DNA of 64,000 bases from Myxococcales bacterium (GTDB taxonomy: Bacteria; Myxococcota_A; UBA9042; JABWCM01; BTVJ01): NCBI GenBank assembly GCA_045863395.1, contig BTVJ01000034.1, positions 16,152 to 80,151 of the forward strand, given 5' to 3'. Made by a program: the position numbers and the translations under genes. Below are positions 40,059 to 63,311 of the stretch, one piece after another; position 1 is the first letter of the stretch, and each line of letters begins with the position of its first letter. Under the pieces are notes generated by a model, which did no database searches, was not told the DNA's origin, and saw nothing but the letters and a program-made list of their open reading frames with translations.

Positions 40059-40136
40059 CGAGCGCGTGGCGAGGGGGGGCCGGCACGCCGCGCGAGCTGC
40101 TCGTGGCCTGGGGCGGGCGTGGCGTGCGTCCGGGGG

Positions 40137-40571
40137 TCAGTCGCGGGCGGCCCGTGCGTTGGCCAGGTCATCGATCTCTCTCTGCGCGGCCTTCGCCAGC
40201 TCTCCTCTCCACTCCTTTCGGGTGCGCGCCGCGATCTCGTCGTGGGCGAAGCGACGGCGGGCGGTGACGAGGTGCTCCGTCTTGCGCTCGAAGAGGTGCT
40301 GCTCGGCCATGAGGAGGCGATTCTCGGCCTCGTCGAGCTGCTGTCGCGTCGCGTCGCGCGCGGAGGCGACCACCTGGAGCCAGGCGCCCGAGAGCACTCG
40401 CTCCGAAGCCAACAGGCGGGACTCCTGGGTAGCGGACTCCTGCTCGATCTCGTGGATCTGCGCCTGCGTCTCGTCCACCTCCCGGTGGGCCTGGCTGACC
40501 GCGGACCGCGCCTTCTGCTCACGCACCTCGGAGATGCGCTGCATCCGCTTCGCAATCAGGTGACGGCTCAT
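40137..40571 (-). CDS. fliJ: FliJ-like flagellar export coiled-coil protein
   Basis: 144-aa coiled coil with R..REQKA near the N-terminus and QREIDDLA at the C-terminus; adjacent to the flg operon. Confidence 0.6.
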   Translation of the reverse strand: MSRHLIAKRMQRISEVREQKARSAVSQAHREVDETQAQIHEIEQESATQESRLLASERVLSGAWLQVVASARDATRQQLDEAENRLLMAEQHLFERKTEHLVTARRRFAHDEIAARTRKEWRGELAKAAQREIDDLANARAARD

Positions 40572-40760
40572 CTCGTCCCTCCGGGCAACAGCCCGTACAG
40601 CTTCGTCATGCAGGGCGCTCATCATAAGGCAAATCCTCGAGGATGCAATCTCGGCCTGCGTGCGGCCCAAGGCGGCGGTAGGCAACACGCACCCGGCAAA
40701 CCCTGCCCAGTCGTGCCGGGTTGGCGTGCCGCAGTGCGCGTGGATGGGGGCTGCGAGGTC

Positions 40761-40776
40761 GGGCACGGCTCTTGCT
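40761..40776 (+). promoter_or_regulatory. Sigma-54 (-24/-12) promoter of the flgF operon
   Basis: GGGCAC-GGCTC-TTGCT gives GG-N10-GC, matching TGGCAC-N5-TTGC(A/T), about 50 nt before flgF. Confidence 0.75.
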
Positions 40777-40824
40777 TTGGGCGCTCCGGCGCGGATTGAC
40801 CGCGTCGATGTACGAGGAGACGGA

Positions 40825-41562
40825 ATGGCCAACGGAATCTACGTCGCCGCGTCGGGAGCCATGGCCCAGCTCCGGCGCCTGGAGGCGGCCTCCAACAACC
40901 TGGCGCACGCCACCGAGCCCGGCTACAAGCGGGACGACGTGACCTTCGAGGATGTACGCGCGCAGCTCCGCCCCGAGGCCGACCCCACGTTGCCCCGAAA
41001 CCGTGACAAGCAGTTCGCGAAGGACAGCGGCACCAACTTCCGCATCGAGGCGGGCCCCATCACGCAGACCGAGAACCCCCTGGACGTGGCGCTGCACGGC
41101 GACGGCTTCCTGCGGGTGCGCACGCCGGACGGCGAGCGCCTGACGCGGGACGGGCGCCTGGCCCTCGACGCCGAGGGCACGCTCCGCACGATCCGCGGTC
41201 ACTTGGTGCTCGACGAGGGCGGCGGCGAGATCACCTTGCCGCCTGGAGCGATCCCGTCCATCGACCGGGCCGGCCAGATCACGGCGGCGGGCGTGCGGGT
41301 GGGGGCGCTGGGGGTCGCGCGGGTCACGGACCCGGCGGGCCTCTCCAAGCAGCCGGACGGAATGTTCGTGGCGCAGGGGCGCTTCGAGGACGCCTCCCGC
41401 GACGAGGTGGACGTCCTGCAGGGCTTCGTCGAGGAGTCCAACGTCAGCGCTGTGCAGGCAATCACGGAGCTGGTCGAGGTGCAGCGCACGTTCGAGGCGC
41501 TGCACCAGGTGATGAACGCCTACCGTCAGATGGACGAGCAGGCCACGCGGCTGATGCGCTGA
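40825..41562 (+). CDS. flgF: Flagellar basal-body rod protein FlgF
   Basis: GIYVAASGA...SNNLAH..EPGYKRD, TENPLDVAL.GDGF, TRDGR, QGFVEESNV, QRTFE. Confidence 0.9.
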   Translation: MANGIYVAASGAMAQLRRLEAASNNLAHATEPGYKRDDVTFEDVRAQLRPEADPTLPRNRDKQFAKDSGTNFRIEAGPITQTENPLDVALHGDGFLRVRTPDGERLTRDGRLALDAEGTLRTIRGHLVLDEGGGEITLPPGAIPSIDRAGQITAAGVRVGALGVARVTDPAGLSKQPDGMFVAQGRFEDASRDEVDVLQGFVEESNVSAVQAITELVEVQRTFEALHQVMNAYRQMDEQATRLMR

Positions 41563-41580
41563 GCCCCTTGAGGTGAGACG

Positions 41581-42381
41581 ATGATCCGATCCCTGCATAC
41601 GGCGGCGAGTGGCATGGAAGCGCAGCAGCTCCGCATCGACACCATCGCCAACAACCTGGCCAACGTGAACACCAGCGGCTTCAAGAAGAGCCGCGCCGAG
41701 TTCCAGGACCTCTTCTACCAGCAGCTCCGGGCGGCCGGCTCCGCGCAGACGACACGGGCTGCGGTCGTGCAGTCGGGCCCCCCTGTCGGGCTGGAGGTCG
41801 GCCAGGGGACGCGGCCGGTGGCGACGCAGAAGATCTTCAGCATGGGCGAGCTCATGCAGACCAACAACCCTCTGGACCTTGCCATCGAGGGCCAGGGCTT
41901 CTTCAAGGTGCTCCGGCCGGACGGAAGCTTCGCGTACACCCGGGCGGGCGCCTTCAAGACCAACGCGGACGGGGTCATCGTCACGGCGGAGGGGCAGCCC
42001 CTGGACCCGGTGATCACCATCCCGCCGGATACGGTCAACGTGCTCATCGACACCGACGGCACCATCAAGGCGCAGGGACCGGGGGACGTGGACGCGGTGG
42101 AGATCGGCAGCATCGAGCTGGTGCAGTTCGTGAACAACGCCGGCCTCCACAACCTGGGCCACGGCCTGTACACGGAGACGGAGGCCAGCGGCCCGCCCAT
42201 CTTCGGCAACCCGGGCGAGGACGGCCTCGGGCAGATCGCGCAAGGAATGCTGGAGTCGAGCAACGTGAAGGTCGTCGAGGAGATGATCGACCTCATCGCC
42301 GCGCAGCGCGCGTATGAGATCAACTCCCGCGTCATCCAGACCACCGACGAGATGCTGCGGCAGGTCACGACGCTTCGGTAG
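41581..42381 (+). CDS. flgG: Flagellar basal-body rod protein FlgG
   Basis: MIRSLHTAASGM.AQQ...IANNLANVNTSGFKKSRAEFQDL, YTRAGAF, QGMLESSNV.VVEEM.DLI.AQRAYEINS. Confidence 0.97.
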   Translation: MIRSLHTAASGMEAQQLRIDTIANNLANVNTSGFKKSRAEFQDLFYQQLRAAGSAQTTRAAVVQSGPPVGLEVGQGTRPVATQKIFSMGELMQTNNPLDLAIEGQGFFKVLRPDGSFAYTRAGAFKTNADGVIVTAEGQPLDPVITIPPDTVNVLIDTDGTIKAQGPGDVDAVEIGSIELVQFVNNAGLHNLGHGLYTETEASGPPIFGNPGEDGLGQIAQGMLESSNVKVVEEMIDLIAAQRAYEINSRVIQTTDEMLRQVTTLR

Positions 42382-42395
42382 CGCTTCGGAGTGTG

Positions 42396-43070
42396 ATGCA
42401 CAGGACTGTGCTCTTCCTCGCCCTGCTGTCATGGGGGTCGGCGCAGGCTGCGAGCATCGACCGCGAGCTGGAGTCGCGCCTCGTGGAGGCGGTGCGAGAG
42501 CGGGTGGGAGCGGGAGAGGTCCGGGTCCGGGACGTGCGTCCCTCGAACCGGAAGGCGCTTGCTGCCGCGGCGCGCGTCGTATCCGTGACGCTCCCGCCCG
42601 GCGAGAAGGGGACAGGGAAGGTGACGGCCAGCGTCACCGTCGCCAGCCGAGGGGGGACAGAGGAGGACCTGTGGGTCACGGCGCGGGTCGAGATCGCGGT
42701 GCCGGTGGTGGTGGCCGCCCGGGAGATTGCCCGGGGGGCGGCCGTCGGGGGGAGCGACGTGAGGGTGGAGACGCGCACGGACGTCCGGGAGGGCTTCGGG
42801 GACGTGGGCGAGGTCATCGGGAGGGAGGCGCGGCGCGCCATTCGCCAGGGGGAGGTGCTGGACCCGCGGCTCCTGACGCTGCCCATCGTGATCAGGCGAG
42901 GCGACGTCGTGAGCGCGGTGGTGATGGGGGCGGCGTTCCAGGTGCGGTCGAGGGCCGAGGCGCGGGAGAGCGGCGCCGTGGGTGACGTCATTCGGGTGCA
43001 GCTCACCGGAAGCAAGAAGGTGCTGCGGGGGCGGGTGGTGAGCGCCGAGATGGTGGAGGTGACGCAATGA
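42396..43070 (+). CDS. flgA: P-ring chaperone FlgA
   Basis: Signal peptide; SAF domain VVVAAREIARG; IRRGDVV...AEARESGAVGDVIRV..TGSKKVL. Confidence 0.92.
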   Translation: MHRTVLFLALLSWGSAQAASIDRELESRLVEAVRERVGAGEVRVRDVRPSNRKALAAAARVVSVTLPPGEKGTGKVTASVTVASRGGTEEDLWVTARVEIAVPVVVAAREIARGAAVGGSDVRVETRTDVREGFGDVGEVIGREARRAIRQGEVLDPRLLTLPIVIRRGDVVSAVVMGAAFQVRSRAEARESGAVGDVIRVQLTGSKKVLRGRVVSAEMVEVTQ

Positions 43071-43759
43071 GCATGCGGGGAGCGTGGCTGGGCATCGTCG
43101 CGGCGGGGCTGCTCGTCGGGTGCGTCCAGCACATCGGCGACTACGAGCCGAAGCGCAGGCAGTACAAGAGCCCGGTCGACTTCCAGCTCATCGAGGGGCC
43201 GCTGCACAACGGGTCGCTGTTCAACCCGAACCACCCGGGGTCGTTCTTGTTCGCGGACCAGCGGGCCATGTACCTGGGCGATCTCGTGACCGTGCGCATC
43301 AAGGAGGTCGCCGACGCCAAGCGGGCCGCCACGACCAAGCTGAGCCGCGAGTCCAACGTGAACTTCCAGATCTCGGCCTTCTTCACGCTGCTCGAGCAGA
43401 TCGACCCGGACCTCACGAAGAAGAACATGCTCAACGCCATGTTCTCCAACGGCTTCGACGGCATGGGGCAGACGGCCAGGACGGAGCACTTCGAGGCGAC
43501 GGTGCCGTCCATCGTGCGGGAGGTGCTGCCCAACGGCAACCTCTTCATCGAGGGGCAGCGGGTGATCCTCGTGAACCTGGAGGAGCACCACTTCTACATC
43601 AGCGGCGTGATCCGGCCGGTGGACATCCAGGGCGACAACAGCATCGAGTCGTCGCTGATCGCGGACGCGGAGATCGAGTTCACGGGGCGCGGGGTCATCA
43701 GCGAGAAGCAGTCCCCCGGGTGGCTGTCGCGGGCCCTCGACTACGCGTCTCCTTTCTAG
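43067..43759 (+). CDS. flgH: L-ring protein FlgH
   Basis: LVGC lipobox; GSLF, LFADQRA..GDLVTVRI.E, VLPNGNLFIEG, SGVIRPVDI..DN.I.S..IADA.I, PGWL. Confidence 0.96.
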   Translation: MSMRGAWLGIVAAGLLVGCVQHIGDYEPKRRQYKSPVDFQLIEGPLHNGSLFNPNHPGSFLFADQRAMYLGDLVTVRIKEVADAKRAATTKLSRESNVNFQISAFFTLLEQIDPDLTKKNMLNAMFSNGFDGMGQTARTEHFEATVPSIVREVLPNGNLFIEGQRVILVNLEEHHFYISGVIRPVDIQGDNSIESSLIADAEIEFTGRGVISEKQSPGWLSRALDYASPF

Positions 43760-43775
43760 AATTGAGGTCGGGACC

Positions 43776-44885
43776 ATGCGCACCTTCCTGATCGCAGTGG
43801 CACTGATGCTGGTCGCGGGTGAGGCCTGGGCGACGCGCATCAAGGACATCGCCCACGTGGACGGCGTCCGGCCGAACCAGCTCGTCGGGTACGGGCTCGT
43901 CGTCGGCCTCGACGGGACGGGGGACACCAAGCGCGCGACGATGACCACGCAGTCCCTGGCGGCCATGCTGTCGCGCATGGGCGTGCGCATCGACCCCGAG
44001 CAGCTCCACCTCAGGAACGTCGCCGCGGTCATGGTCACGGCGATGCTTCCGCCCATGTCGCAGCCGGGGTCCGCCGTGGACGTGGTGGTCAGCTCCATCG
44101 GCAACGCGCGGAGCCTGTTCGGGGGCACGCTGATGCTGACGCCGCTCAAGGGCCTCGACGGGCGGACCTACGCCGTCGCGCAGGGTCCGCTCCAGGTGGG
44201 CGGCTTCGGGGCCGAGGGGGCGAGCGGGAGCCGGTTCCAGAAGAACCACTTGAATGTGGGGCGGGTCGCGTCGGGGGCGCTGGTCGAGCAGAGCGTCCCC
44301 ATCACGATGGGAGACGGCGAATACATCATGATCCAGATCGATGCGCCGGACTTCACGACCGCCGAGGTGGTGGCCAAGGCGATCAACGACGCGGGTGGGA
44401 CCCTCGGCGGGGGCGCGAACATGGCGCTGCCCATGAGCGCCGCCGAGGTGCGGGTGACGGTGCCGGCGGCGCGGAAGGCGGCGCTCGCGTCCTTCATCGC
44501 GGCCATCGAGGTGTTGGAGGTGCAGCCCGACACGGTCGCCAAGGTCGTGCTCAACAGCCGGACGGGGACGGTGGTGCTCGGCGACAACGTGCGCATCTCG
44601 ACCGTGGCCGTGGCTCACGGGGGGCTGACCATCGAGGTCGGCGAGACGCCCCAGGTGTCGCAGCCGACGGCGCCCTTCGGGGCGGGGACGACGGTGCGGA
44701 CCACGCAGTCGACGGTGAAGGCTACGGAGCAAGGGGACTCGCTGAAGCTGGTGCAGGCGGGAGCAACGCTCGGGGACGTGGTCAAGGCACTCAACACGCT
44801 GGGGGCGACGCCGCGGGATCTCATCGACATCCTGCAGGCCATCAAGGCGGCGGGCGCGCTGCACGGCGAGCTGGAGGTCCTGTGA
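43776..44885 (+). CDS. flgI: P-ring protein FlgI
   Basis: RIKDIA...GVRPNQLVGYGLVVGLDGTGD, NVAAVMVTA.LPP, SL.GGTL.LTPL.G.DG..YA.AQG, ALN.LG.TPRDLI.ILQAIKAAGALHGEL. Confidence 0.98.
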   Translation: MRTFLIAVALMLVAGEAWATRIKDIAHVDGVRPNQLVGYGLVVGLDGTGDTKRATMTTQSLAAMLSRMGVRIDPEQLHLRNVAAVMVTAMLPPMSQPGSAVDVVVSSIGNARSLFGGTLMLTPLKGLDGRTYAVAQGPLQVGGFGAEGASGSRFQKNHLNVGRVASGALVEQSVPITMGDGEYIMIQIDAPDFTTAEVVAKAINDAGGTLGGGANMALPMSAAEVRVTVPAARKAALASFIAAIEVLEVQPDTVAKVVLNSRTGTVVLGDNVRISTVAVAHGGLTIEVGETPQVSQPTAPFGAGTTVRTTQSTVKATEQGDSLKLVQAGATLGDVVKALNTLGATPRDLIDILQAIKAAGALHGELEVL

Positions 44886-45478
44886 AGCTGGAGCCGACCG
44901 GGGTGCCGATGGTGGGGAGCCGCAGCGAGGTCGCGATGGACCGCGTGGAGGCCGCGGCGCGCGGCGCCGAGTCGCGGGAGGACCTCGAGCACGTCGCCAA
45001 GGAGTTCGAGGCGCTCATGCTCACGAAGCTGGTGGAGTCCATGCGCGCGACGGTGCCCAAGTCAGATCTGTGGGCTGGCGGATCGAGCCAGGGCATGTAC
45101 GACGGCATGATGGACGACGCACTCGGGCACCACCTGGCCAACAGTGGCGGGCTCGGCGTGGCGAAGGAGCTGATGCGGAGCTGGGGTCGCGGCACGGGGA
45201 GCGGAGAGATGGGGGGAGGGGGCATTGGGGAGCTTCGACAGGTCGAGCCATCGCGAGGGCGCTCGGAGCGGGGCGAGCGCCTGCCGCCGGACGAGCTGTC
45301 GCGCATCCTCCAGGCGTCGCGAGACCTGGGCGGGCGGGACGACGGCGAGACCCCCCTGTCGGAGCTGCCTCCCCCGACGCGGGACGAGTGGCTCTTCAGC
45401 CCCCAGGCGGAGCAGGTGTTGCGGGCGCTGATCAGCAACGACCCGGCGTCGCCCGGCGGGAGTGACGATGGACTTTAG
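44882..45478 (+). CDS. flgJ: FlgJ-like rod-binding protein without a muramidase domain
   Basis: LEHVAKEFEALML..LV.SMRATVP...MY.GMMD...LA..GGLGVA; directly after flgI. Confidence 0.85.
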   Translation: MKLEPTGVPMVGSRSEVAMDRVEAAARGAESREDLEHVAKEFEALMLTKLVESMRATVPKSDLWAGGSSQGMYDGMMDDALGHHLANSGGLGVAKELMRSWGRGTGSGEMGGGGIGELRQVEPSRGRSERGERLPPDELSRILQASRDLGGRDDGETPLSELPPPTRDEWLFSPQAEQVLRALISNDPASPGGSDDGL

Positions 45479-45506
45479 GCAGTTTGGCGGGGTTCGGGTG
45501 CGGCCG

Positions 45507-45536
45507 GTTAAGGACGGCGCTCCCAGGCCCGTTGTG
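45507..45536 (+). promoter_or_regulatory. Sigma-28-like promoter of flgM
   Basis: GTTAAGG-N16-CGTTGTG; the same elements and spacing recur at 48872 and 56898. Confidence 0.7.
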
Positions 45537-45574
45537 CCCCCTGACGAGCCCCTGCCTCGTCGGAGGAGAAGTCC

Positions 45575-45871
45575 ATGAGCACCACCCGACCCCTCGGCCC
45601 CAAGGGTCTGCCCGAGCTTGCGCCCACCCGCCAGACCGCAGTGACCGTGCCCGCCTCCGAGCCGCAGAGCGGCGACGAGGCCCCTGCGCACGTCGCCGAC
45701 AGCGTGGGGAGGGTGCAGCAGACGCTGATCGCTGGCCGCGAGCACGTCGCCCGGGCGGACGCGCAGTTGCTGGCGGAGCTGAAGGAGGCCATCAAGAGCG
45801 GCACGTTCAAGGTGAACGTGGACGAGCTGGCGGAGCGGCTGATCGCCGACGCCTTTGGAGACGATGGGTGA
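45575..45871 (+). CDS. flgM: Anti-sigma-28 factor FlgM
   Basis: 98 aa; C-terminal LAELKEAIKSGTFKVNVDELAERL; SD GGAGG. Confidence 0.9.
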   Translation: MSTTRPLGPKGLPELAPTRQTAVTVPASEPQSGDEAPAHVADSVGRVQQTLIAGREHVARADAQLLAELKEAIKSGTFKVNVDELAERLIADAFGDDG

Positions 45872-46368
45872 TAGCGGTCGGAGAGCTGGTGCAGGTGCTC
45901 GATGAGCAGACGGCGCTCGTCGACGAGCTGATCGAGGTTGCGGAGCGAGAGCGGGCGCACCTCATCGCGTTCGAGCCCCACCGGATCCAGGCGTGCGTGG
46001 AGGAGAAGCGGGCGCTGCTCGAGCGGGAGCGGGCGCTGGAGGAGCGGCGGCAGGTCGCGCTGGCGTCGGTGCTGGACGCGCTGGGCGTTTCTGCGGAGGA
46101 CGCGGAGACCGTGGACGACCTGGCCGCCCTGCTGCCCTCCCATGGGGGCGAATTGCGGGAGAGCGCTGCGAGACTGCGGGAGCGGGTCCAAGCGCTCGGC
46201 GCCCACCACGCCATCAATCAGGAGCACACGGAGCGCGCCCTGCGCTGGGTGAACGCCTACGTGGGCGTCCTGCGGGGGGCCGCCGAACCCACCCCCACCA
46301 ACAGATACGCGCCAAGCGGCCGCACAGCGACGGGGGGCACCGCGCCCACCGTCAACCGTCGCGCATAG
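45868..46368 (+). CDS. flgN: FlgN export chaperone
   Basis: Helical L..EQ.....L.E....ER..L...I...VEEK...N pattern; between flgM and flgK; GTGA overlap. Confidence 0.8.
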   Translation: MIAVGELVQVLDEQTALVDELIEVAERERAHLIAFEPHRIQACVEEKRALLERERALEERRQVALASVLDALGVSAEDAETVDDLAALLPSHGGELRESAARLRERVQALGAHHAINQEHTERALRWVNAYVGVLRGAAEPTPTNRYAPSGRTATGGTAPTVNRRA

Positions 46369-46379
46369 GAGCCCCCCAC

Positions 46380-47768
46380 GTGGCGATCACGACCATCCAG
46401 GAGATCCTGAGCCTCGGCAAGAGCGGCCTGAACGCGAGCAAGAACCTGCTCGGGCTCACGTCGCAGAACGTCGCCAACGTGGGGACGCCCGGGTACTCGC
46501 GGCAGCGCATGAACCTGGCGAACGCTGCGGTGCTGGGACTCGGCGTGGTCGCCGGGAACCCGCAAGCCGTGCGAAATGCGTTCACGTTCAAGGCGCTGCT
46601 CAACGCCAGCGGCAGCAAGGGGAGCTACGACGGGCAGCTCGCCGCGCTGAGCCTGGTCGAGCCGGTGGTCAACGAGCTGGACGGGGTCGGGCTCCAGGCG
46701 GCGCTCAACAAGTTCCTGGAGTCGCTCGGCCAGGTGAGCGCCAACCCGAGCGGCGACCCGGAGCGCATCCAGCTCATCCAGGCGTCGAAGGGCCTCGCGG
46801 GCCAGTTCAAGGTGGCGGCGCAGGGCCTCCAGGACGCGGCGAGCGGCGCGGCGAACCAGGTCAAGCAGACGGCGGAGCAGGTCAACCAGAAGCTGAAGGA
46901 CATCGCGAAGCTCAACGCGCAGATCGAGGGGCTGACCAGCACGAACCAGAACGCCAACGCCCTGATCGACCAGCGGGACAAGCTGCTGAGCGAGCTGTCT
47001 GAGCTGGTGTCGGTGCAGGTGGTCCACGAGGGCGACGGCACGGTCAACATCTTCGCGGCGGGCGGGCGCCCGCTGGTGGAGGGCCTCAAGGCGAGCGAGC
47101 TGGTCGTGTCGGGGCCCGACGGGGCCGGGGTGATCTCCGTTCAGGTCAAGAAGCCCAACGGGGTGCTGGTCGATCCGCTGGCGCCCTTCGGGGGCAAGCT
47201 GGGAGGGCTGATCGGTGCGTATGATCAGGAGATCCTCCCCGCCATCGAGAAGCTCGACGAGATGGCCTTCCAGTTCATGAACGCGTTCAACGCCCAGCAC
47301 CAGGTCGGCTTCGGCAAGGACGGGACGACCGGGCAGCTCTACTGGGAGCCGGTGGTCGTGCAGCAGGGCGCGGCCTTCAACGTGAAGCTGGCCGCGGCCA
47401 TCGAGACCAACCCCAACGCCATCGCGGCGGCGGGGGCGGCGGGGGACCTCCCCGGGGCGAACGACAACATGCTCCTCCTGATGGCCATCCAGGAGAGCCC
47501 GCTCATGGCCGACGGCAGCTCCGTCACCGGCGCCTGGCAGAACCTGGGCCAGCGCATCGGCTCCGCCATCAACACGGCGAAGGTTGGGGCGCTCACGGAC
47601 GGGGGCACCATCGACCAGCTCTACGCGCTGCAGCAGGCGGAGAGCGGCGTGAGCCTCGACGAGGAGATGGTCAACATGATGATCGCGCAGAAGAGCCTTG
47701 AGGCCGCGAGCGCGGTGATCCGGACGGCGGACGACATGTTCGACACGATCCTGTCCATTGTCCGGTAG
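46380..47768 (+). CDS. flgK: Hook-associated protein FlgK
   Basis: G.SGLNA......TSQNVANVGTPGYSRQR, L.DQRD.LL.ELS, GG.LGGL, SGVSLDEEMVNM...QK...A...VI...D.MFDTIL. Confidence 0.95.
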   Translation: MAITTIQEILSLGKSGLNASKNLLGLTSQNVANVGTPGYSRQRMNLANAAVLGLGVVAGNPQAVRNAFTFKALLNASGSKGSYDGQLAALSLVEPVVNELDGVGLQAALNKFLESLGQVSANPSGDPERIQLIQASKGLAGQFKVAAQGLQDAASGAANQVKQTAEQVNQKLKDIAKLNAQIEGLTSTNQNANALIDQRDKLLSELSELVSVQVVHEGDGTVNIFAAGGRPLVEGLKASELVVSGPDGAGVISVQVKKPNGVLVDPLAPFGGKLGGLIGAYDQEILPAIEKLDEMAFQFMNAFNAQHQVGFGKDGTTGQLYWEPVVVQQGAAFNVKLAAAIETNPNAIAAAGAAGDLPGANDNMLLLMAIQESPLMADGSSVTGAWQNLGQRIGSAINTAKVGALTDGGTIDQLYALQQAESGVSLDEEMVNMMIAQKSLEAASAVIRTADDMFDTILSIVR

Positions 47769-47828
47769 GGCGCTACGCTGGTAGGGCCTTAGGTCCGCAG
47801 GGGGACTACGAACCAAGAGGAATCGACG

Positions 47829-48716
47829 ATGCGCGTCTCCGACCCGATGTTCAAGCAGCTCACGATTCAGCAGAACGCGAAGAACGCCCAGGCGCTCTTC
47901 GAGGCGGGCGAGCCGCTCATGACGGGGAGGCGCGTCAACCGCCCGAGCGACGACCCCATCGCGGCGGCGCGCATCGCGGAGCTGGATCGGGCGCTGGCGA
48001 AGTTCGGGGCGTATGAGAAGGCGCGGACGATGGTCGAGCTGGACCTGACGACCATGGAGGGGACGCTCCAGACGGCGCAGTCGGTGCTCGGCCAGCTCAA
48101 GGAGCTCGCCGTCCAGATGGTGAACGACACGTACAACGCGGATGATCGCGCTGCAGCGGCAACGGCTGCCGCCGGGCTGAGGGACCAGCTCATCAAGCTG
48201 GCCAACACCCAGCAAGCCGACGGACGGTACCTGTTTGCGGGTGTCGCCGAGGGCGCTCCGGCCTATGACGTGGTGACTGGCGCCTACCAGGGGAGCGCCA
48301 TCAACCGCGAGCTGGAGATCCTGCCCGGCCTCTTCGTCGAAGGGACGCTGAATGGAGCACAGACTTTTGGCGGAGGACCCGGACCCACGGTGTTCGAGGA
48401 GATCGACGCCTTGATTGCCGGGCTCCAGGCCAATGATCAGGTCGCGATCCAACAGTCCATCGGGAACCTCGACACCGCCACGGCAACGGTCGGCATTGCG
48501 CAGTCACGCATTGGCGGAGCGCTCCAGAACCTGGACCTGGCAGCGGTAACGACGGACGACCTCAAGTTCAACCTGTTGTTGCGACGTTCCAGCGAGCAGG
48601 ACCCGGACATCGCCACCCAAGCCAGCATGTACTCTTCGGCCGAGCAGGCCCTCACCGCCTCCATCGAGCTGTCGAAGAAGCTCCTCACCTCGTCACTGCT
48701 GCAGTGGCTCAGATAG
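47829..48716 (+). CDS. flgL: Hook-associated protein FlgL
   Basis: MRVS, TGRRVNRPSDDP, LAN....GRYLFAG, SLLQWLR C-terminus. Confidence 0.93.
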   Translation: MRVSDPMFKQLTIQQNAKNAQALFEAGEPLMTGRRVNRPSDDPIAAARIAELDRALAKFGAYEKARTMVELDLTTMEGTLQTAQSVLGQLKELAVQMVNDTYNADDRAAAATAAAGLRDQLIKLANTQQADGRYLFAGVAEGAPAYDVVTGAYQGSAINRELEILPGLFVEGTLNGAQTFGGGPGPTVFEEIDALIAGLQANDQVAIQQSIGNLDTATATVGIAQSRIGGALQNLDLAAVTTDDLKFNLLLRRSSEQDPDIATQASMYSSAEQALTASIELSKKLLTSSLLQWLR

Positions 48717-48871
48717 ATGAATGCCAGGCGGTCCATTCAGCTCGTTGATGGGCCCCCCCGGTACCCTGGCGCCTCGCGAGGGCCGGAGCGTATGAGCCCA
48801 CGCTGCTGCGCTCACGAGCGCACCGGCTTCGGTGTGGATCACCGGTTCGTTGGCGCTTTTTTCCACTGGCA

Positions 48872-48901
48872 GTTAAGGTCTCCAGGGCGCGCCACGTTGT
48901 G
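48872..48901 (+). promoter_or_regulatory. Sigma-28-like promoter of fliC
   Basis: GTTAAGG-N16-CGTTGTG, with a T6 tract upstream. Confidence 0.7.
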
Positions 48902-48904
48902 ACC

Positions 48905-49015
48905 AGTACGGAACGAATGGAAGTTCCAACCCTTTGCGGAAGGCCGAGCGCTTGATCGGCCCAACGAAGCCCCGCAGTCGCCTACGGCACGCGGGTGACG
49001 AACCAGGAGGAGAGA
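48905..49015 (+). promoter_or_regulatory. fliC 5' UTR with GGA-loop hairpins (putative CsrA sites)
   Basis: GGAAC-GAATGGAA-GTTCC (48910-48927), CCT-TTGCGGA-AGG (48931-48943) and CAGGAGGA over the SD. Confidence 0.55.
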
Positions 49016-49849
49016 ATGGCCCTGTCACTTCAGACCAATGTGGCGTCCATCGGCGCCCAGAACAACCTGCGCAGCACCCAGCGCATGTTGGACCAGAGCA
49101 TCGCCCGGCTGTCGTCCGGCCTCCGGGTCCGCAGCGCTCGCGACGACGCCGCGGGACTCGCGGTGTCCGAGAACCTGCGCGCCCAGCTCAAGGGCTACAA
49201 CCAGGCCATCCGGAACGCGAACGACGGCGTGTCCATGGCGCAGACGGCCGAGGGAGCCCACCAGGCGGTCAGCGACATCCTCGTGCGCATGCGCGAGCTG
49301 GCGGTCCAGGCGTCGTCCGACGGCATCGGGGACTCGGAGCGGGCCTACCTGAACACCGAGTTCACGTCGCTCTACACCGAGATCAACCGCATCGCGAACG
49401 TCACCGAGTTCAACGGGATCAAGCTGACCGACGGAACGGACTCCACGTTGAGCTTCCAGATCGGGACCCGCAACAGCGCCAACGACCAGATCACCCTGTC
49501 GCTGTTCGACCTGACCAGCGCCGGTTCGGTGACTGGGAGCCTCTTCGCCCAGACAATCAGCGCCCAGGCCAACGCCTTCTCGGCGATCAGCGTCATCGAC
49601 ACGGTGCTCAACTCCCTGAACGACAGCCGCGCGAAGCTCGGCTCCGTCGCGAACCAGCTCACCGTGGCCATCGAGAACCTCGGCGTCACCATCGAGAACC
49701 TCTCGGCCGCGAACTCCCAGATCCGCGACTCCGACGTCGCCCAGGAGTCGGCGAACTTCGCGCGCGCGGCGGTGCTCCAGCAGGCTGGCGTGTCCATGCT
49801 CGCCCAGGCGAATGCCCAGCCCAACCTGGCGCTGCGGCTCCTCGGCTAG
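49016..49849 (+). CDS. fliC: Flagellin (short, 277 aa)
   Basis: MALSLQTNVAS, RLSSGLRV.SA.DDAAGLA, AIRNANDG.SM.QTAEG, RMRELAVQ, EINRI...TEFNG, RAKLG...N.L, ENLSAANSQIRD.DVAQE, LQQAGVSMLAQAN..P..ALRLLG. Confidence 0.98.
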   Translation: MALSLQTNVASIGAQNNLRSTQRMLDQSIARLSSGLRVRSARDDAAGLAVSENLRAQLKGYNQAIRNANDGVSMAQTAEGAHQAVSDILVRMRELAVQASSDGIGDSERAYLNTEFTSLYTEINRIANVTEFNGIKLTDGTDSTLSFQIGTRNSANDQITLSLFDLTSAGSVTGSLFAQTISAQANAFSAISVIDTVLNSLNDSRAKLGSVANQLTVAIENLGVTIENLSAANSQIRDSDVAQESANFARAAVLQQAGVSMLAQANAQPNLALRLLG

Positions 49850-49861
49850 TCGACGTCCTGA

Positions 49862-49888
49862 GCAGGGGAGGGCCCGCGCCTCCCCTGC
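49862..49888 (+). terminator. Strong hairpin between fliC and fliD (partial terminator or mRNA stabiliser)
   Basis: GCAGGGGAGG-GCCCGCG-CCTCCCCTGC, a perfect 10-bp stem with no U tract. Confidence 0.55.
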
Positions 49889-49918
49889 CCTGCACGCCCC
49901 TGCGGGAGGGCTACCCCC

Positions 49919-51259
49919 ATGGCATCACCAATCACCTCCAGCGGCTTGGCGTCGGGCATCGACACGAACGCAATCCTCGCCCAGCTCGTCCAGATTCAGA
50001 AGTTCCCCATCCAGAAGCTGCAGCAGCGGCAGAGCGACATCAGCACGAAGGCGGCAAAGCTGTCGGACCTGACTACGAAGCTGAAGGCTCTCGCGGACGC
50101 AGCGAAGAAGCTCGGCAACGTGGGCGACCTCCTCAGCTACTCGGCGACGACGGGGGACGAAGGCATCGCTTCGGTGACGGCCTCCGGAGCTGCGTCTCCG
50201 GCCACCTACTCGCTGAAGGTCCTTGGCTTGGCCAAGGCCGAGAAGAACCTCAGCGCCGGATTTTCGTCGTCCACGGACACCGTGGCCGGGGGAACGCTCA
50301 GCTTCTCCATCAACGGCGGGACTGCCAACGACGTCGTCATCGACGCGGGCGACTCACTGTCGACCGTGGTCAACAAGATCAATGGAGCGGACGCCGGTGT
50401 CACGGCGACCATCATCAATGACGGCCAAGGCACGCCCACCAGCTACAAGATCCTGCTGACCGCCAGCACGACGGGCTACACCGGTGCTGCCTCCGACGCG
50501 GTCACTATTGGCGACTCGGGCACCGGATTGACCTTCGCAGAGTCAGTGACCGCCACCAATGCCACACTGGAGCTCGATGACCAGCTTGTCACTCGCACCA
50601 CCAACTCCTTCTCCGATCTCGTCACGGGCCTGAGCTTCACCTTGAAGGGTGAGGGAACGACCTCGCTTCAGGTCGCGTCAGACCCGGACGCCGTTGTGGA
50701 CCGCGTGAGTGAGCTCGTAGACGCCTTCAACTCGGCAATGGGCGCGGTGTTGAAGGAGCTCAAGGTCACGTCCGACACAAAAAGGTCGGCGACTCTCGCG
50801 GGTGAGCCCTTCATGCGGTCGCTCCAGGCCGCGCTGTCTGCAATTGTCTCGAAGGACGTGGGTGACACGGGGGGCCCGTTCACGACGCTTGCCTCACTTG
50901 GCTTGGGCATGACACAGACGGGAACTCTGAAGTTGGACGAGGGCGCCTTCAAGAAGGCGCTGGAGACCAACGCCGCGTCGTTGGCCGGCGTGTTCACGAA
51001 GGAGTCCACGGGCGCGGTCGCGCTGTTCGACGACCTCGTGAGCCAGTACACCGACCCGGTCGATGGGGCGCTGACTCGGAGCGCCAAGACGCTCGCGTCC
51101 CGCAAGAGCAGCCTCTCGGACCGCATCTCCACTCTCCAGGATCGTGCCGACAGCTATGAGACGAGGCTCCGTAATCAGTTCATCGCGATGGAGCGCTCCA
51201 TCGCGCTCATCCAGTCACAGGGTGCACGAATGATGGCCATTCTGGGTTCCGGGGCATAG
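49919..51259 (+). CDS. fliD: Filament cap FliD
   Basis: GLASGIDT..I..QLV, Y.LKV..LAKA, IN.ADAGV.A.IINDG, TN.FSD.V.G..FTL, L.SLG......GTL.LD...F..AL, E.RL..QF.AME. Confidence 0.95.
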   Translation: MASPITSSGLASGIDTNAILAQLVQIQKFPIQKLQQRQSDISTKAAKLSDLTTKLKALADAAKKLGNVGDLLSYSATTGDEGIASVTASGAASPATYSLKVLGLAKAEKNLSAGFSSSTDTVAGGTLSFSINGGTANDVVIDAGDSLSTVVNKINGADAGVTATIINDGQGTPTSYKILLTASTTGYTGAASDAVTIGDSGTGLTFAESVTATNATLELDDQLVTRTTNSFSDLVTGLSFTLKGEGTTSLQVASDPDAVVDRVSELVDAFNSAMGAVLKELKVTSDTKRSATLAGEPFMRSLQAALSAIVSKDVGDTGGPFTTLASLGLGMTQTGTLKLDEGAFKKALETNAASLAGVFTKESTGAVALFDDLVSQYTDPVDGALTRSAKTLASRKSSLSDRISTLQDRADSYETRLRNQFIAMERSIALIQSQGARMMAILGSGA

Positions 51260-51268
51260 GAGGAGATC

Positions 51269-51664
51269 GTGTACGCCAAGCGCTACAAAGCAGCGGGCGC
51301 AGAGACCGCCGGGCCCGGAGACCTCGTCGTCATGCTCTACGACGGAATCCTGAAGTTCGCAGCGGCCGCGCTGGAGGCGCTTGGAGAGGCTGACCGGCCC
51401 CGCCTCACCCTCAGTACGAATCGCGCGATCGCGATAGTCGACTACCTTCAGGTCATCCTCGACTCCGAGCAGGCACCTGATCTGGTGGCCGCTCTGGATC
51501 GGACCTACACGCACTGGATTCGCTCCCTGGCGCGCGCCAGCGCGGAGCAGGATTCGGCCCCAATCCATGCGATCCTCCCCGACATTCAGGGCCTCCGGGA
51601 TGCATGGGCCGAGGCGGCGAAGGCGGTGACGCGGGATCAGCTCATGAATCGGTCCCTGGGTTGA
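51269..51664 (+). CDS. fliS: Flagellin chaperone FliS
   Basis: Y.....ETA.P..LVVMLYDGIL, RA.AIV..L...LD, L...Y, LRDAW. Confidence 0.92.
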   Translation: MYAKRYKAAGAETAGPGDLVVMLYDGILKFAAAALEALGEADRPRLTLSTNRAIAIVDYLQVILDSEQAPDLVAALDRTYTHWIRSLARASAEQDSAPIHAILPDIQGLRDAWAEAAKAVTRDQLMNRSLG

Positions 51665-51670
51665 CGGGCC

Positions 51671-51961
51671 ATGCGAGACTTGGTGCAGGAGTGGGTCGAG
51701 GTCTCCTCAAAGATCTTTGAGGCCGTGCGCGGAGGGGACGTCACGGTGGTGGAGACCCTCTGTGAGCTGCGTACAGATCTGCTGAACCGAATCGAGCAGG
51801 ACGCGTTGCGGAGCCCGCTTGACCAGATCGAGCGAAACGCACTCCGTGACGCGGAGTCCGATCTTCAGGGGCGAGTCTCCATCTTCCTCGAAGGAGCGCG
51901 CACAGAAGCCGCCGGAAACGCCATGAAGAGCAGGACCGTGAGAGCCTACGGTGACCGCTGA
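51671..51961 (+). CDS. Small helical protein in the FliT position
   Basis: 96 aa after fliS; L...R.DLL..I pattern and C-terminal RAYG. Confidence 0.55.
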   Translation: MRDLVQEWVEVSSKIFEAVRGGDVTVVETLCELRTDLLNRIEQDALRSPLDQIERNALRDAESDLQGRVSIFLEGARTEAAGNAMKSRTVRAYGDR

Positions 51962-52073
51962 GGTTACGACACCGGGGCCTCCGATCCACGTGGGGGTTCA
52001 TGGCACCCGTTGACGGTGGCACGCGGGAGCCTGGATCCAGCATCCTGGTGGCGCCAAACCACGAAGGCGATGA

Positions 52074-53135
52074 GTGATGACGAGTCTAGGAACAGCGATC
52101 ACGGAAGAGTCCCTCCGTCAGCTCGCCAGCGCCGGGGAGACCGTCACGGCGATTCGATGCGACCAGCGAGGAACGTCAGCCATTTCGGGTGCGCCGCTTC
52201 CCCCCGCCGGCCTGGCCTCCACCCATGCGCTCGTGCACGTAGACTCCACCGCAACCGACGAAACGCTCGCTGGGGCGCTGCACGAAGCCCTCGATTCATG
52301 CGTGGACGGGTCCCCGATCACCGTCGTAGCGGAGAACGGACGGCACTTCTCCGCTGTCGCCCTCCGCATGGCCGCCAGTCCACCTGCGCTAGGAGAGGTC
52401 GTGCCGGGTGTCCCTCTGGCCTCGGTTCGAGACCTGCTGGTCGACGCGGGCGTCACCGAGATCCGTGAGAGCGGCGTGTCCGCCGCCTACTTGCCGGAGA
52501 GCCTCGACCACATCAGGGGACGGGACCTGTGCCAGGATCAGAGTGTGGACAAGGCGCGCCTCTACAACCTCGCGCACGTGGTCGTGTTCGAGGGGCGACG
52601 GGGCTCCTGGCCTCCCAGCTCCTACGACTCGGAGCAGTTGGCAGCCTGGCTGGACTCCGGTGATGTCGAGGGTGCTCTCGGCTACATCAGACCATTCACC
52701 GACGTTCAGCGCTCTCGCGCTCGGCTCTGGAGTGATCTGGCCGTACTGCTCGAGGCGGCCTCCCTGCACGACGACGCCATTGCCTGCGCTCGGCGCGCGA
52801 CGTCCTGCGACGTCTTCCACGACGCAGCCCGCCTGAACCTCTTCGACCTGACAGGCACCACCGAGGCCACCGATGAGGGGGGGAGCTTCTGGGAGTCGGA
52901 CGCAGAGTCGATGGCACAGAAGGCGGCGTCCCTGGTTCGTTCCCTGTGCCCGGCCGACGCACTGCCCTTGGCAGAGCTGGCCGTGATGCGGTGCCCAAGT
53001 ACCGTGACACTGGGGACCCTGCGCATGGTACTGCGAGAGCTCGGCGAGATGTCGCGTGCGGGAGAGATCCCAGCACTGGCGCGCCTCCTGAGATTGATCG
53101 GCAGCGACGACGACACCGAGGCGACTGTTGAGTAG
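52074..53135 (+). CDS. Hypothetical protein with a weakly methyltransferase-like N-terminus and TPR-like C-terminus
   Basis: ITVVAEN.RH...ASVRDLLVDAGV; LWSDLAVLL......DDAIACARRA...AARLNL. Confidence 0.55.
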   Translation: MMTSLGTAITEESLRQLASAGETVTAIRCDQRGTSAISGAPLPPAGLASTHALVHVDSTATDETLAGALHEALDSCVDGSPITVVAENGRHFSAVALRMAASPPALGEVVPGVPLASVRDLLVDAGVTEIRESGVSAAYLPESLDHIRGRDLCQDQSVDKARLYNLAHVVVFEGRRGSWPPSSYDSEQLAAWLDSGDVEGALGYIRPFTDVQRSRARLWSDLAVLLEAASLHDDAIACARRATSCDVFHDAARLNLFDLTGTTEATDEGGSFWESDAESMAQKAASLVRSLCPADALPLAELAVMRCPSTVTLGTLRMVLRELGEMSRAGEIPALARLLRLIGSDDDTEATVE

Positions 53136-54765
53136 CGACGTGCTCACGAACGGCGAGGCACGCGCTGTCTACGTGGACCTCCTCATGGCGGTGAGGCGGA
53201 TCGAGAGCCTGTCCAGGCGACTCACCGAGGCGATCGGCTTCGAGGACGACCATCTCGCCGGGTTCCTGCACCTTCAGCAGGTGGATGCGCGGCGCAATCT
53301 GGCCGACGTCGCGAAGAGTCTGGAAGGCAACGCGCCGCAGAACGACCAGGAGACAGCCATCCTGAGTGCGGTATCGGCCTGCGCTGCCCAGATTGCCAAG
53401 GACGATTCACGGTACCAGTCCTGGCGGCTGTCGAGGTTCACCGGCAAACAGTTTGCGGCGGACTGGGTCGAGCAGGCGCTGGTCAATCTCCCTCGGCTGA
53501 TCGACCGACCCATGGCCGGAGCGCTGGCAGACTCATTCAAAGGTGTGCCCGCGGTAGTGGTGTCTGCCGGACCTTCCCTCGACCGAAACATCCGGCACTT
53601 GGTGCCGTTCCGCGATCAGATCGTGCTGATCGGGATGAACCAGACGGTCCGCGCATTACGCCGGATCGGGCTCGAGCCCGACTTCGTGCTGGCCCTGGAC
53701 GGGGCGGACCTCCGGTATCAGTTCGAGGACGCGGGGGCCAAGCCGTTGGCAGCCTCCGTCGTTCGGGTGTCCGTCCATCCATCCGTCCTCGAGGTTCCCT
53801 CAACCCACTTGTTCAGTTGGAGTGGAAACCTTCCACACGAGCGCTGGGTCGCCCAGGTGCTGGGGGGCGGCTCCAGAAGCATCATGGGCGGTGGCGGTTC
53901 CGTCGCACACTTCTGTTTGAGCTTTGCCCGCCTGATCGGCTGCGACCCGGTGATCCTCATCGGTCAAGACCTGGCGATCACGGGGGCCAGGTACTACGCA
54001 TCGGGGGCCGCCGACCACGATCACGAGCTGTCGCTGTCCGAGGACGGCCAGCGGATCGTGCACAAGACGTCGGAGAGGAAGGCGAGAGCCATCCCCAGGA
54101 CCGCCAACCGAACCGAGCTGCTGTGCGAGGTGGAGGGGTACTTCGGGGACGTCGTCCAGACGACCAGCGTATTCAGCCACTTCATTGACCAGTTTCGCGA
54201 GCTCCTTGAGTGGTTCAATGGTACTCCGCGGGTGATCAACGCCACGGAGGGAGGAGCGAGGATCCCCGGCACCGAGCAGATGGGGCTCCGCGAGGCACTC
54301 GAGCGCTTCTGCGTTGGACCCGTCGAGGTCGCACGAGTCGTCGAATCCCAACTCCAGAGCCGTGACTGGGAGAGCGCGGCGAGCGCGTGCTGCGAGGAGC
54401 TGCAGCTGCTCATCGATACGTGCACACTGACCAGGAGAGTGGCAAGCCGCTGGCGCACGTGCGCGAAGAAGGTGTGCGACCAGCCGCAGTCCGTCGAGGA
54501 CCGGGAGCGGCTCATCGCAGAGACTCGGCGGCTCGTGGGGGCAGCTCGCCCGCTGACGGAGGTCGCGGCACCGGCGCTGAGAGACGCCTTTGGCGCCGCC
54601 GCAGCGGCGTTTGCAGAGGCCCCGGGCTTCACCGAGGCCGTGCAAGTGTTCGAGCGCCTTCTCTCGGAGCTGGAGCGGTTCATCTCCCGCGTGGAGACGG
54701 CGGCTGAACAGAGTCTGACCGCCATCAGTGAACGCGCGACCCACGCAGCCCCCATGGCTCCATGA
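53128..54765 (+). CDS. maf: Maf-family (DUF115/MAF_flag10-like) flagellin glycosyltransferase
   Basis: PAVVVSAGPSLDRNI, PDFVLALD, GGSVAH....A..IGC.PVILIGQDLA, INATEGGARI.G. Confidence 0.88.
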   Translation: MSSDVLTNGEARAVYVDLLMAVRRIESLSRRLTEAIGFEDDHLAGFLHLQQVDARRNLADVAKSLEGNAPQNDQETAILSAVSACAAQIAKDDSRYQSWRLSRFTGKQFAADWVEQALVNLPRLIDRPMAGALADSFKGVPAVVVSAGPSLDRNIRHLVPFRDQIVLIGMNQTVRALRRIGLEPDFVLALDGADLRYQFEDAGAKPLAASVVRVSVHPSVLEVPSTHLFSWSGNLPHERWVAQVLGGGSRSIMGGGGSVAHFCLSFARLIGCDPVILIGQDLAITGARYYASGAADHDHELSLSEDGQRIVHKTSERKARAIPRTANRTELLCEVEGYFGDVVQTTSVFSHFIDQFRELLEWFNGTPRVINATEGGARIPGTEQMGLREALERFCVGPVEVARVVESQLQSRDWESAASACCEELQLLIDTCTLTRRVASRWRTCAKKVCDQPQSVEDRERLIAETRRLVGAARPLTEVAAPALRDAFGAAAAAFAEAPGFTEAVQVFERLLSELERFISRVETAAEQSLTAISERATHAAPMAP

Positions 54766-56121: not shown

Positions 56122-56221
56122 TGCCCCGTGTCGTAGCGCAGTGAGTGGACCAGGGCTCTGAAGGATGCCCATGGAGGCGCACTTCAGGCGGACGTCGAGG
56201 CGGTCGCTCCTGGAAGGGTGG

Positions 56222-56866: not shown

Positions 56867-56897
56867 GAGTCGCAGGCGCCAAGGCACGGGCCGCGCG

Positions 56898-56926
56898 GTA
56901 AAGGCTGCGGCCCCACGGCCCGTTGT
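56898..56926 (+). promoter_or_regulatory. Sigma-28-like promoter of the sugar-pathway operon
   Basis: GTAAAGG-N16-CGTTGT, same spacing as the flgM and fliC copies. Confidence 0.65.
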
Positions 56927-56971
56927 CGCTGGTGTGCCGGGTGCCCCGCAAGCGTTTCGTAGCGAGCAGAC

Positions 56972-58039: not shown

Positions 58040-58043
58040 GCGC

Positions 58044-63263: not shown

Positions 63264-63281
63264 CAGTGACCTCGGGCGGAG

Positions 63282-63311
63282 AGGATAGCGCCGCCCGCGT
63301 TGGGGGGTCAA
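63282..63311 (-). promoter_or_regulatory. Sigma-70-like promoter of neuB-neuC-neuA
   Basis: Minus strand TTGACC-N18-TATCCT, preceded by GC. Confidence 0.45.

Follow-up and report, generated by a model that had tools for sequence, protein, structure and literature searches.

The window analysed here is a stretch of 64,000 nucleotides, which carries a run of late flagellar genes between positions 40137 and 51961. Its source is an uncultured wastewater relative of gliding myxobacteria. The interval opens with a gene absent from the list in the initial annotation, a fliJ-like export chaperone (40137..40544, minus strand; PF02050 E 3e-6 and TIGR02473 E 6e-6, both below cut-off) that is divergent from flgF, as it also is in genomes G040 and G449. 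The named genes from flgF to fliS all lie on the plus strand in the expected order, as open reading frames with family matches in profile searches, and the uninterrupted series of the initial annotation is borne out. They encode the proximal rod FlgF (40825..41562; TIGR02490 E 5e-52; start by codon model), the distal rod FlgG (41581..42381; TIGR02488 above cut-off), the P-ring chaperone FlgA (42393..43070; TIGR03170 above cut-off), the L ring FlgH (43067..43759; PF02107 E 4e-50), the P ring FlgI (43776..44885; NF003676 above cut-off) and the rod cap FlgJ (44882..45478). FlgJ matches PF10135 only (TIGR02541 at positions 8-94 of 294): profile searches detected its rod-binding domain and no muramidase domain. 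Then come the anti-sigma-28 factor FlgM (45575..45871; PF04316 above cut-off), the chaperone FlgN (45868..46368; PF05130 E 4e-19; start by codon model), the hook-filament junction proteins FlgK (46380..47768; TIGR02492 above cut-off) and FlgL (47829..48716; TIGR02550 above cut-off), a flagellin of 277 aa (fliC, 49016..49849; PF00669 and PF00700), the single copy found in the genome, the filament cap FliD (49919..51259; PF02465 and PF07195) and the flagellin chaperone FliS (51269..51664; TIGR00208 above cut-off). The proposed fliT-like gene is present as a plus-strand frame for a small helical protein of 96 aa (51671..51961) that has no match in Pfam or NCBIfam; since the Atlas entries most like it belong to FliT clusters (feature score 0.90, TM 0.79), FliT identity is kept as a lead. 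The FliJ, FliT and FliK assignments are weak.

Downstream, an ORF with a weak TPR match (52074..53135; PF13432 E 0.003), a Maf/PseD-like flagellin modification protein (53128..54765; PF01973 E 2e-31; NF050051 partial) and a GT2 glycosyltransferase (54847..56121; PF00535) are followed, also on the plus strand, by a NeuD-type acetyltransferase, a CBS-nucleotidyltransferase, a LegB-like dehydratase and a LegC aminotransferase (56165..60172; TIGR03570 and TIGR04181 above cut-off; TIGR04180 445 vs 475). On the minus strand lie a cytidylyltransferase, a NeuC-type epimerase and a NeuB-type synthase of the nonulosonic acid pathway (60323..63323; TIGR03568 and TIGR03569 above cut-off; TIGR03584 partial). 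From this proximity of maf and nonulosonic-acid genes to fliC, with the LegB and cytidylyltransferase matches below cut-off, we infer that the flagellin would be glycosylated by the Maf/legionaminic-acid genes. The Myxococcota-type motifs noted earlier among the neighbouring genes are present (HRDVSPQN at 11743, four CDDGNxCT and a MopE repeat protein), together with a TraA-like protein.

Two kinds of promoter had been proposed for this locus. The sigma-28-like sites, before flgM (45508..45533, plus strand) and before fliC (48873..48898, plus strand), share the sequence TTAAG-N17-CGTT and stand far above expectation: the pattern, itself derived from these two sites, occurs twice in the window (0.01 expected) and four times in the genome (0.07 expected). 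It is also found on contigs C3 and C5, the latter bearing rpoB, and comparable sites occur upstream of relatives' flagellins (strict pattern in 7 of 38 upstream windows, against 0 of 38 inside-gene controls). A canonical sigma-28 pattern has no match across the genome. The sigma-54-like -24/-12 site before flgF (40762..40775, plus strand) is well placed but within the chance count; with one found where 0.59 are expected, position is its sole support. FliA and FlgM are both encoded and the late genes share a predicted promoter, as in a FliA/FlgM regulon; the genome also encodes sigma-54 activators, two of them on contig C74, in agreement with the regulated system first suggested.

The search for motor, export, hook and fliA genes that the initial annotation had called for located them on this contig of the same genome. 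C74 encodes motAB, fliA, flhFG, flhAB, fliLMNOPQR, the two sigma-54 activators, flgBC, fliEFGHI, a fliK-like gene and flgDE. The MS/C-ring proteins FliF, FliG, FliM and FliN and the stator MotAB are all found there, and every family of the rod, P/L rings, hook, junction, flagellin and cap is present in the genome. FlhA, its sole FHIPEP protein, scores 861 bits with TIGR01398 (cut-off 772), the SctV model falling below its own cut-off; with the export gate FlhAB and FliPQR, this identifies a bacterial flagellum rather than a non-flagellar type III secretion system. The two halves sit on two contigs of a bin with 97% completeness and 3.46% contamination. In G030 both halves form one cluster, and G004 and G040 likewise join genes from both. 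Type IV pilus motors are also encoded, with five PilT-family ATPases above cut-off.

Directly after fliA on C74 lies a gene of the MepA/M74 endopeptidase family (C74:8310-9098; PF03411 E 2e-12). The H-x-S-H..D and H-x-H zinc-binding motifs align with those of MepA (PDB 1tzp), but the fliA-adjacent proteins form a separate clade (100/100). This clade occurs in 17 of the 24 filament-cap-positive genomes of the class and in none of the 83 cap-negative ones, and all 17 members keep the motifs. M74 genes in general were rejected as a flagellar marker, being present in 104 of 107 genomes of the class, with only one clade tracking the flagellum. Outside the class, 30 genomes with FlgI gave no equally strong match to this clade (best E 1e-51), and the listing of one literature search showed no flagellar role for MepA. 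Because FlgJ lacks a muramidase domain, passage of the rod is predicted to use the M74 endopeptidase, which may replace the missing activity.

The chemosensory genes comprise two CheA, both of the CheA-REC (ACF-like) type, two MCP receptors, two CheB and seven CheW matches. The F class is reportedly defined, by Wuichet and Zhulin in 2010, by a CheA without fused receiver domain together with its receptor set; general, not class-specific, HMMs found no such CheA in the 97%-complete bin. The CheA dimer domain PF02895 was not found in the genome, and a complete lack of chemosensory genes, considered on that ground, was rejected given the seven CheW matches and two systems. As only two CheA-REC systems and two receptors were found, swimming in this organism may be unsteered. 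CheW is lacking in 11 of the 24 flagellated class genomes. In families f1, f4, f14, f15 and f16, the FliM N-terminal peptide has lost its customary Asp in all genomes (11 of 11); we rejected it as support for a lack of steering, since G040, G341, G035 and G025 have CheA/CheW, and G013 and G005 have a near-canonical peptide without CheW.

To place the genome we used RpoB, as 16S rRNA was not assembled in the bin, with named-genome references from 1/64 parts of the collection. In this single-gene FastTree, the class falls in a 66-row clade (support 99) with Cystobacter fuscus, Haliangium sp. and Polyangia, which agrees with the proposed Myxococcota-related lineage; UBA9042 and UBA727 are candidates for the class. 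The genome itself is part of a distinct 25-row clade (96), outside the Cystobacter and Haliangium/Polyangia subclades, and is not nested among the fruiting myxobacteria (Myxococcia or Polyangia) in the RpoB tree. By FlgH and FlgI it belongs to a 15-row clade (99) of class members only. Across 58 genomes the two trees have 18 of 55 splits in common (shuffles: mean 0.23, maximum 2), and since the flagellar tree follows the RpoB tree, the flagellar genes were likely inherited vertically. There is local conflict, the genome being nearer family f10 by RpoB and nearer f4, f14, f15 and f16 by the flagellar tree; family f5 lies outside the class clade. FliD was not detected in 83 of the 107 class genomes, and FlgI, flagellin and FliD were not found in the closest order-mate (G001, 92% complete).

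The initial annotation had presented flagella in a myxobacteria-like genome as a surprise, but they were already published for cultured Myxococcota and tabulated for uncultured classes; at the phylum level the lineage was known to be flagellated (PMC2330069; PMC7188933; PMC12403147), and in our sample of 401 Myxococcota genomes, 167 have FlgI and 141 have flagellin. According to the available parts of PMC2330069 (Thomas et al., 2008), Anaeromyxobacter dehalogenans 2CP-C has a near-complete set with motAB and fliC, which its authors argue is an ancestral trait that most myxobacteria have lost; Anaeromyxobacter strain K swims, and in 2CP-C swimming is "not commonly observed" despite the cluster. 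In the same account, 2CP-C has one 55.7-kb cluster with embedded chemotaxis genes and no detected fliJ, flgN, fliT, flgA, flgJ or fliK, whereas the present genome has two loci, chemotaxis genes in neither, and those six genes or look-alikes. Unlike 2CP-C, it also belongs to a different class and has a mepA-like gene after fliA. Persicimonas caeni YN101, placed in class Bradymonadia of Myxococcota (PMC11509652, in part), is described in the available text as having a complete flagellar gene set and type IV pili, with close relatives without flagella (PMC7188933, 2020); it is cultured, its flagella were seen by electron microscopy and it moves by them. The present genome likewise combines complete flagellar genes with type IV pili, but is uncultured and known from genes alone. 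Table S2 of PMC12403147 (2025) records FliP in 5 of 12 UBA9042 and 3 of 3 UBA727 rows and, among the rows shown, in 9 of 13 for UBA796 and 13 of 26 for Polyangia, and Murphy et al. (2021; 10.1101/2021.07.06.451402) note "flagellar assembly" in other Myxococcota MAGs; the accessible portions of both tabulate or mention genes, with no inheritance, promoter, chemotaxis or M74 analysis. High expression of flagellum genes is stated for Bdellovibrionota and Myxococcota MAGs, the two not separated (PMC11937823, in part), and "flagell" was not found in its supplement.

The best account of the interval is that it supplies rod, rings and filament, one half of a full flagellar gene system in an uncultured Myxococcota class, and we consider it highly probable, judging from sequence, that this system, likely vertical in descent, builds a working flagellum. 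Four-tier polar regulons with sigma-54, FlhF/FlhG and FliA/FlgM, and Maf-dependent nonulosonic-acid glycosylation, are known from Vibrio, Aeromonas and Campylobacter, and the usual sigma-28 -10 element is CGATA. The present genome has the same regulator families and, likewise, Maf and neu/leg genes beside fliC, but differs in its CGTT element, its single-domain FlgJ and the absence of any detected flagellar-type Che system. The sigma-54 activators would induce the genes for the export gate, the rings, the rod and the hook, with the M74 endopeptidase encoded beside fliA predicted to open the peptidoglycan for the rod; the completed hook would export FlgM and release FliA, which would read the TTAAG-N17-CGTT promoters before flgM-flgNKL and fliC-fliDST. 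MotAB would drive the rotor, FlhF/FlhG would likely fix a polar position, and Maf would likely decorate the one short flagellin with a sugar of the legionaminic-acid type.

As a rival account, the cluster could stem from a chimeric assembly, from contamination of the bin or from recent acquisition out of a flagellated phylum. In its favour are the placement of the halves on separate contigs, the contamination level of the bin and, from fliD to the GT2 gene, a reduced GC3 (0.76-0.83) together with low codon scores. However, the aconitase-fliJ junction is spanned by contigs from studies P3, P4 and P5, those of P3 and P4 continuing to flgF, and because independent contigs bridge it, the chimerism feared near 40 kb does not apply (in run X15, no piece crosses 40 kb among the matches listed). 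The congruent flagellar and RpoB trees, the best flagellin matches, all from class members, the class-specific mepA-fliA pair on C74 and the promoter motif shared with C3 and C5 argue in the same direction; this explanation is already largely refuted and retains only the slightest probability. Measured against 790 chunks, the tetranucleotide distance falls between the 48th and 90th percentiles. RNA-library contigs cover the flagellar genes, as assembled contigs that attest the presence of sequence and are uninformative on transcription; in two such runs of one study, a long deep contig begins before flgM and flgA-J are thinly covered, a difference we set aside because contig depth cannot rank genes.

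Instead of swimming, the main use of the filament could also be to adhere, to attach to flocs or to sense surfaces, as the lack of a detected flagellar-type chemotaxis system, the sludge and biofilm habitat labels, the large glycosylation block and 16 PilZ matches might suggest. We regard this as unlikely, since intact genes with typical codon scores encode MotA, MotB, FliL, FliG, FliM and FliN, and since Persicimonas moves by its flagella (PMC7188933) and Anaeromyxobacter strain K swims (PMC2330069). It is very improbable that the genes are silent or decaying remnants about to disappear, as they have from most of the class's families: the many class genomes without FliD and the rarely observed swimming of 2CP-C would fit such a fate, but no stops or truncations were found in the flagellar ORFs scanned, the promoter motif is conserved among relatives and, among the differences listed, strain variation is concentrated at third codon positions (27 of 40 in flgA, 16 of 18 in flgL).

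In conclusion, the locus itself is ordinary, and it is of value as a carefully verified example of a broader trend. Flagella being already known in Myxococcota, the main interest lies in the M74 enzyme, a candidate flagellar cell-wall hydrolase of which our literature search found no earlier description, and in the apparent absence of a conventional chemotaxis pathway; the missing CheW in nearly half of the flagellated class genomes bears on why flagella persist without steering. A possible joint reading, somewhat less likely than not, combines a phylum-wide ancestral flagellum lost many times, a flagellar variant particular to this class in which a dedicated M74 enzyme opens the wall for the rod in place of the FlgJ muramidase, and a motor without a flagellar chemotaxis pathway in this genome and many relatives, which would be unsteered dispersal swimmers. 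About 35-42% of the sampled Myxococcota genomes have flagellar markers, which track the species phylogeny, and this supports the idea put forward in 2008 that the ancestors of myxobacteria were swimmers and that flagella disappeared in the fruiting lineages. If the flagellum is indeed ancestral and was lost many times, the non-flagellated fruiting myxobacteria would be the derived case.

The flagellar gene set of the genome that carries the window (G000; 8.77 Mb in 186 contigs, completeness 97.4%, contamination 3.5%) is real and intact, and it is likely ancestral. At 40137..51961, where the initial annotation had placed an intact late flagellar cluster, sequence and family matches recovered every gene it had named, in the order stated and with open frames: flgF, flgG, flgA, flgH, flgI, flgJ, flgM, flgN, flgK, flgL, fliC, fliD and fliS. 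A fliJ-like gene on the minus strand opens the interval, and the cluster ends with a 96-aa ORF that gave no HMM match; its resemblance to Atlas FliT clusters is no more than a lead. The genome has one flagellin gene, and by family searches FlgJ consists of the rod-binding domain only. A Maf/PseD-like gene, a GT2 gene and seven nonulosonic-acid genes of legionaminic type lie 3' of the cluster. From fliD to the GT2 gene (window 49919-56121), GC3 is lower (0.76-0.83) and codon scores are low, a pattern expected where a glycosylation block is often swapped.

A search of the rest of the genome located the motor, export and hook genes and fliA on contig C74, which carries motB, motA, flbD, a mepA-like gene, fliA, flhG, flhF, flhA, flhB, fliR, fliQ, fliP, fliO, fliN, fliM, fliL, two sigma-54 activators, a TPR gene, flgB, flgC, fliE, fliF, fliG, fliH, fliI, a MotE/FlbB-like gene, a fliK-like gene, flgD and flgE. 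FlhA exceeds the flagellar cut-off and is the sole FHIPEP protein of G000; five PilT-family ATPases also exceed their cut-off. The two loci are likely halves of one ancestral cluster, because in the genome G030 a single cluster unites the window genes with most of those on C74, and genes of both halves are joined in G004 and G040, the latter retaining the divergent fliJ. In families f4 and f15 (loci L300-L310, from G030, G004, G040 and G002) flgH is shifted ahead of flgF, and in G002 it directly adjoins flhF, flgFGA not lying in between.

Chimerism near 40 kb, which had been raised as a way in which the cluster could mislead, does not account for it, since the aconitase-fliJ junction is bridged in contigs of other sequencing runs: X5 (39922-41632), X10 (39736-40772), X13 (39771-40399), X14 (35664-41843) and X9 (35709-40605). 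X18, a more distant strain, has the adjacency unchanged, and X15 and X17 gave no bridging piece among the contigs listed; none of these eight runs is among the three flagged as possible sources. The stretch is present in 20 of the 24 runs listed, from nine studies labelled bioreactor, wastewater, sludge, aquatic, biofilm or plain metagenome, and tetranucleotide distances of the flagellar stretches fall at the 48th-90th percentile of 790 chunks. Strain differences lie at third codon positions in 27/40 cases for flgA (40 of 164 differences listed) and 16/18 for flgL (from 40 listed of 423). Short patches in flgA (42497-42822) and flgL (48215-48494) show dense differences in strains from other studies between near-identical flanks, which suggests allele exchange among strains. 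The aconitase-family protein itself (window 38067-40058) has its small-subunit (swivel) domain ahead of the large domain.

No 16S gene is assembled in G000, and the organism was placed by RpoB. The best named match, in a scan of 1/64 of the collection, was Cystobacter fuscus (72%); ten of the 120 best proteins were labelled, six as Haliangium, Myxococcales or Polyangia, one as Deltaproteobacteria and three as other phyla. A FastTree of 109 rows, of which the partial row G348 is a long-branch artefact, recovered the class of G000 as a 25-row clade (support 96), nested in a 66-row clade (99) that also contains Cystobacter, Haliangium sp. and Polyangia, and separate from each of these; two more groups of the phylum fell outside the 66-row clade without resolution. 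With this marker grouping G000 among named Myxococcota, we conclude that it belongs to an uncultured class of that phylum.

The cluster had been thought surprising on the premise that Myxococcota are non-flagellated. This holds for most cultured fruiting species; otherwise it fails, as flagellated Myxococcota have been published. A 55.7-kb flagellar cluster is described from Anaeromyxobacter dehalogenans, and swimming from Anaeromyxobacter strain K (Thomas et al. 2008, PMC2330069); the authors propose ancestral flagellar motility. Flagella of Persicimonas caeni were seen by electron microscopy (PMC7188933), and its class is assigned to Myxococcota (PMC11509652). Flagellar assembly is reported in uncultured MAGs (Murphy et al. 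2021), a 2026 preprint terms Myxococcota a motile phylum, and the rows shown of Table S2 of PMC12403147 give FliP in genomes of UBA9042 (5/12), UBA727 (3/3), UBA796 (9/13) and Polyangia (13/26). A literature search, with subscription papers mostly outside it, found no paper analyzing the phylum-wide pattern.

FlgI was found in 15 of the 41 relatives compared, G000 being included in this and the following counts. Among 401 phylum genomes with a completeness of at least 85% (cultured and uncultured not told apart), 167 have FlgI and 141 a flagellin match of E 1e-40 or better; of the 107 class genomes, 24 have FliD. An IQ-TREE of FlgH and FlgI (81 rows, many of them without FlgH) places G000 in a 15-row clade (99) exclusively of class members. 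Over 58 common genomes this tree shares 18 of 55 splits with that of RpoB (500 shuffles: mean 0.23, maximum 2), and the path lengths of the two trees have a correlation of 0.51 (2000 permutations: maximum 0.23). The trees also conflict: 37 splits differ, family f5 lies apart from the clade of the class in the FlgH and FlgI tree, and the nearest families of G000 are not the same. From these comparisons we infer that the flagellum was probably passed down vertically and lost repeatedly. Two f5 genomes, G013 and G005 (L016, L018, L334, L335), have FlgI, grouping outside the class, and a near-canonical FliM; FliD, flagellin at E 1e-40 and CheW were not found in them, and their system is possibly filament-less or separately acquired. 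Six further Myxococcota (G120, G260, G390, G380, G179, G089) have FlgI and flagellin and give no Pfam FliM domain match; in several classes FliM may have diverged strongly or be missing.

Upstream of flgM and of fliC stands the sigma-28-like motif TTAAG-N17-CGTT, found twice in the window (0.01 expected) and four times in G000 (0.07 expected), each time in an intergenic stretch 67-143 bases 5' of a gene. Because the pattern was built from the two window sites, its genuine tests are the two other genome sites and the relatives, in which a strict form precedes 7 of 38 flagellin starts and none of 38 inside-gene controls. The sigma-54-like site 5' of flgF is by itself within chance expectation. 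The two unlinked genes with the same sigma-28-like promoter encode a SprA-related (PF12118) protein (L312:5968-6849, contig C5) and a 388-aa protein without family match (L311:6133-7299, C3). With both strands of the 8.77 Mb counted, the pentamer TTAAG is found only 32 times, and four of these occurrences belong to the sigma-28-like sites.

The gene 3' of fliA on C74 (L006:8310-9098) encodes an M74 peptidase whose zinc-binding motifs can be aligned to those of E. coli MepA and whose N-terminus, judged by eye, has a hydrophobic, signal-like stretch. M74 genes of any kind occur in 104/107 class genomes. A subset scoring E 3e-70 or better (the next score being 1e-55, and the threshold chosen after the gap was seen) occurs in 17 of the 24 FliD-positive and none of the 83 FliD-negative class genomes by hand count, kin not being independent; seven FliD-positive genomes lack it. 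G035 has both FliD and this peptidase, and G336, of the same genus, neither. The 17 proteins (loci L359-L375) group in a single clade (100/100) when compared with 11 paralogues, and the gene directly adjoins fliA in 16, the remaining one lying at a contig edge. No match at that level was found in 30 FlgI-positive genomes of other classes, nor a flagellar wall-cutting role for M74 in a limited literature search. The clade is a candidate substitute for the FlgJ muramidase, predicted to cut peptidoglycan for rod passage.

As to steering, the only chemosensory systems found in G000 contain CheA with a fused receiver domain; there are two such CheA proteins, with genes for CheB and a hybrid kinase after each, and two receptors (loci L328, L329 and L330 on C26, C100 and C109). 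G000 also has CheR proteins with TPR matches and an orphan cheW-cheR pair, and its CheB total two; searches with relatives' CheA and receptor sequences found no more of either. We take both CheA systems to be of the ACF class. This class is termed non-motility in PMC9321776, and ACF systems may nevertheless control the flagellar motor, because Frz, an ACF system, governs Myxococcus motility (PMC9321776). By hand count, a CheW match is absent from 11 of 24 FliD-positive class genomes (6 of 15 that are at least 90% complete) and present in the other 13; the CheA dimer domain occurs in 210/401 phylum genomes. A compact chemotaxis operon could be missing from the G000 bin. The form of the FliM N-terminal peptide does not follow the presence of Che genes across genomes and lends no support either way. 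In other groups, bacteria with flagella and no chemotaxis are known.

On established flagellar biology, expression would be ordered by a cascade that runs from sigma-54 to FliA and includes the export of FlgM, MotAB would drive rotation, FlhF and FlhG would direct polar placement, and glycosylation would be Maf-dependent; M74 is the predicted wall-opening enzyme, and swimming is predicted to be unsteered. Gene content and order, motif positions, distribution and trees are the directly observed basis of this scheme. The flagellum of G000 adds to those already known in Myxococcota, and its main interest lies in the phylum-wide flagellar pattern, with two side findings, the M74 peptidase and steering.
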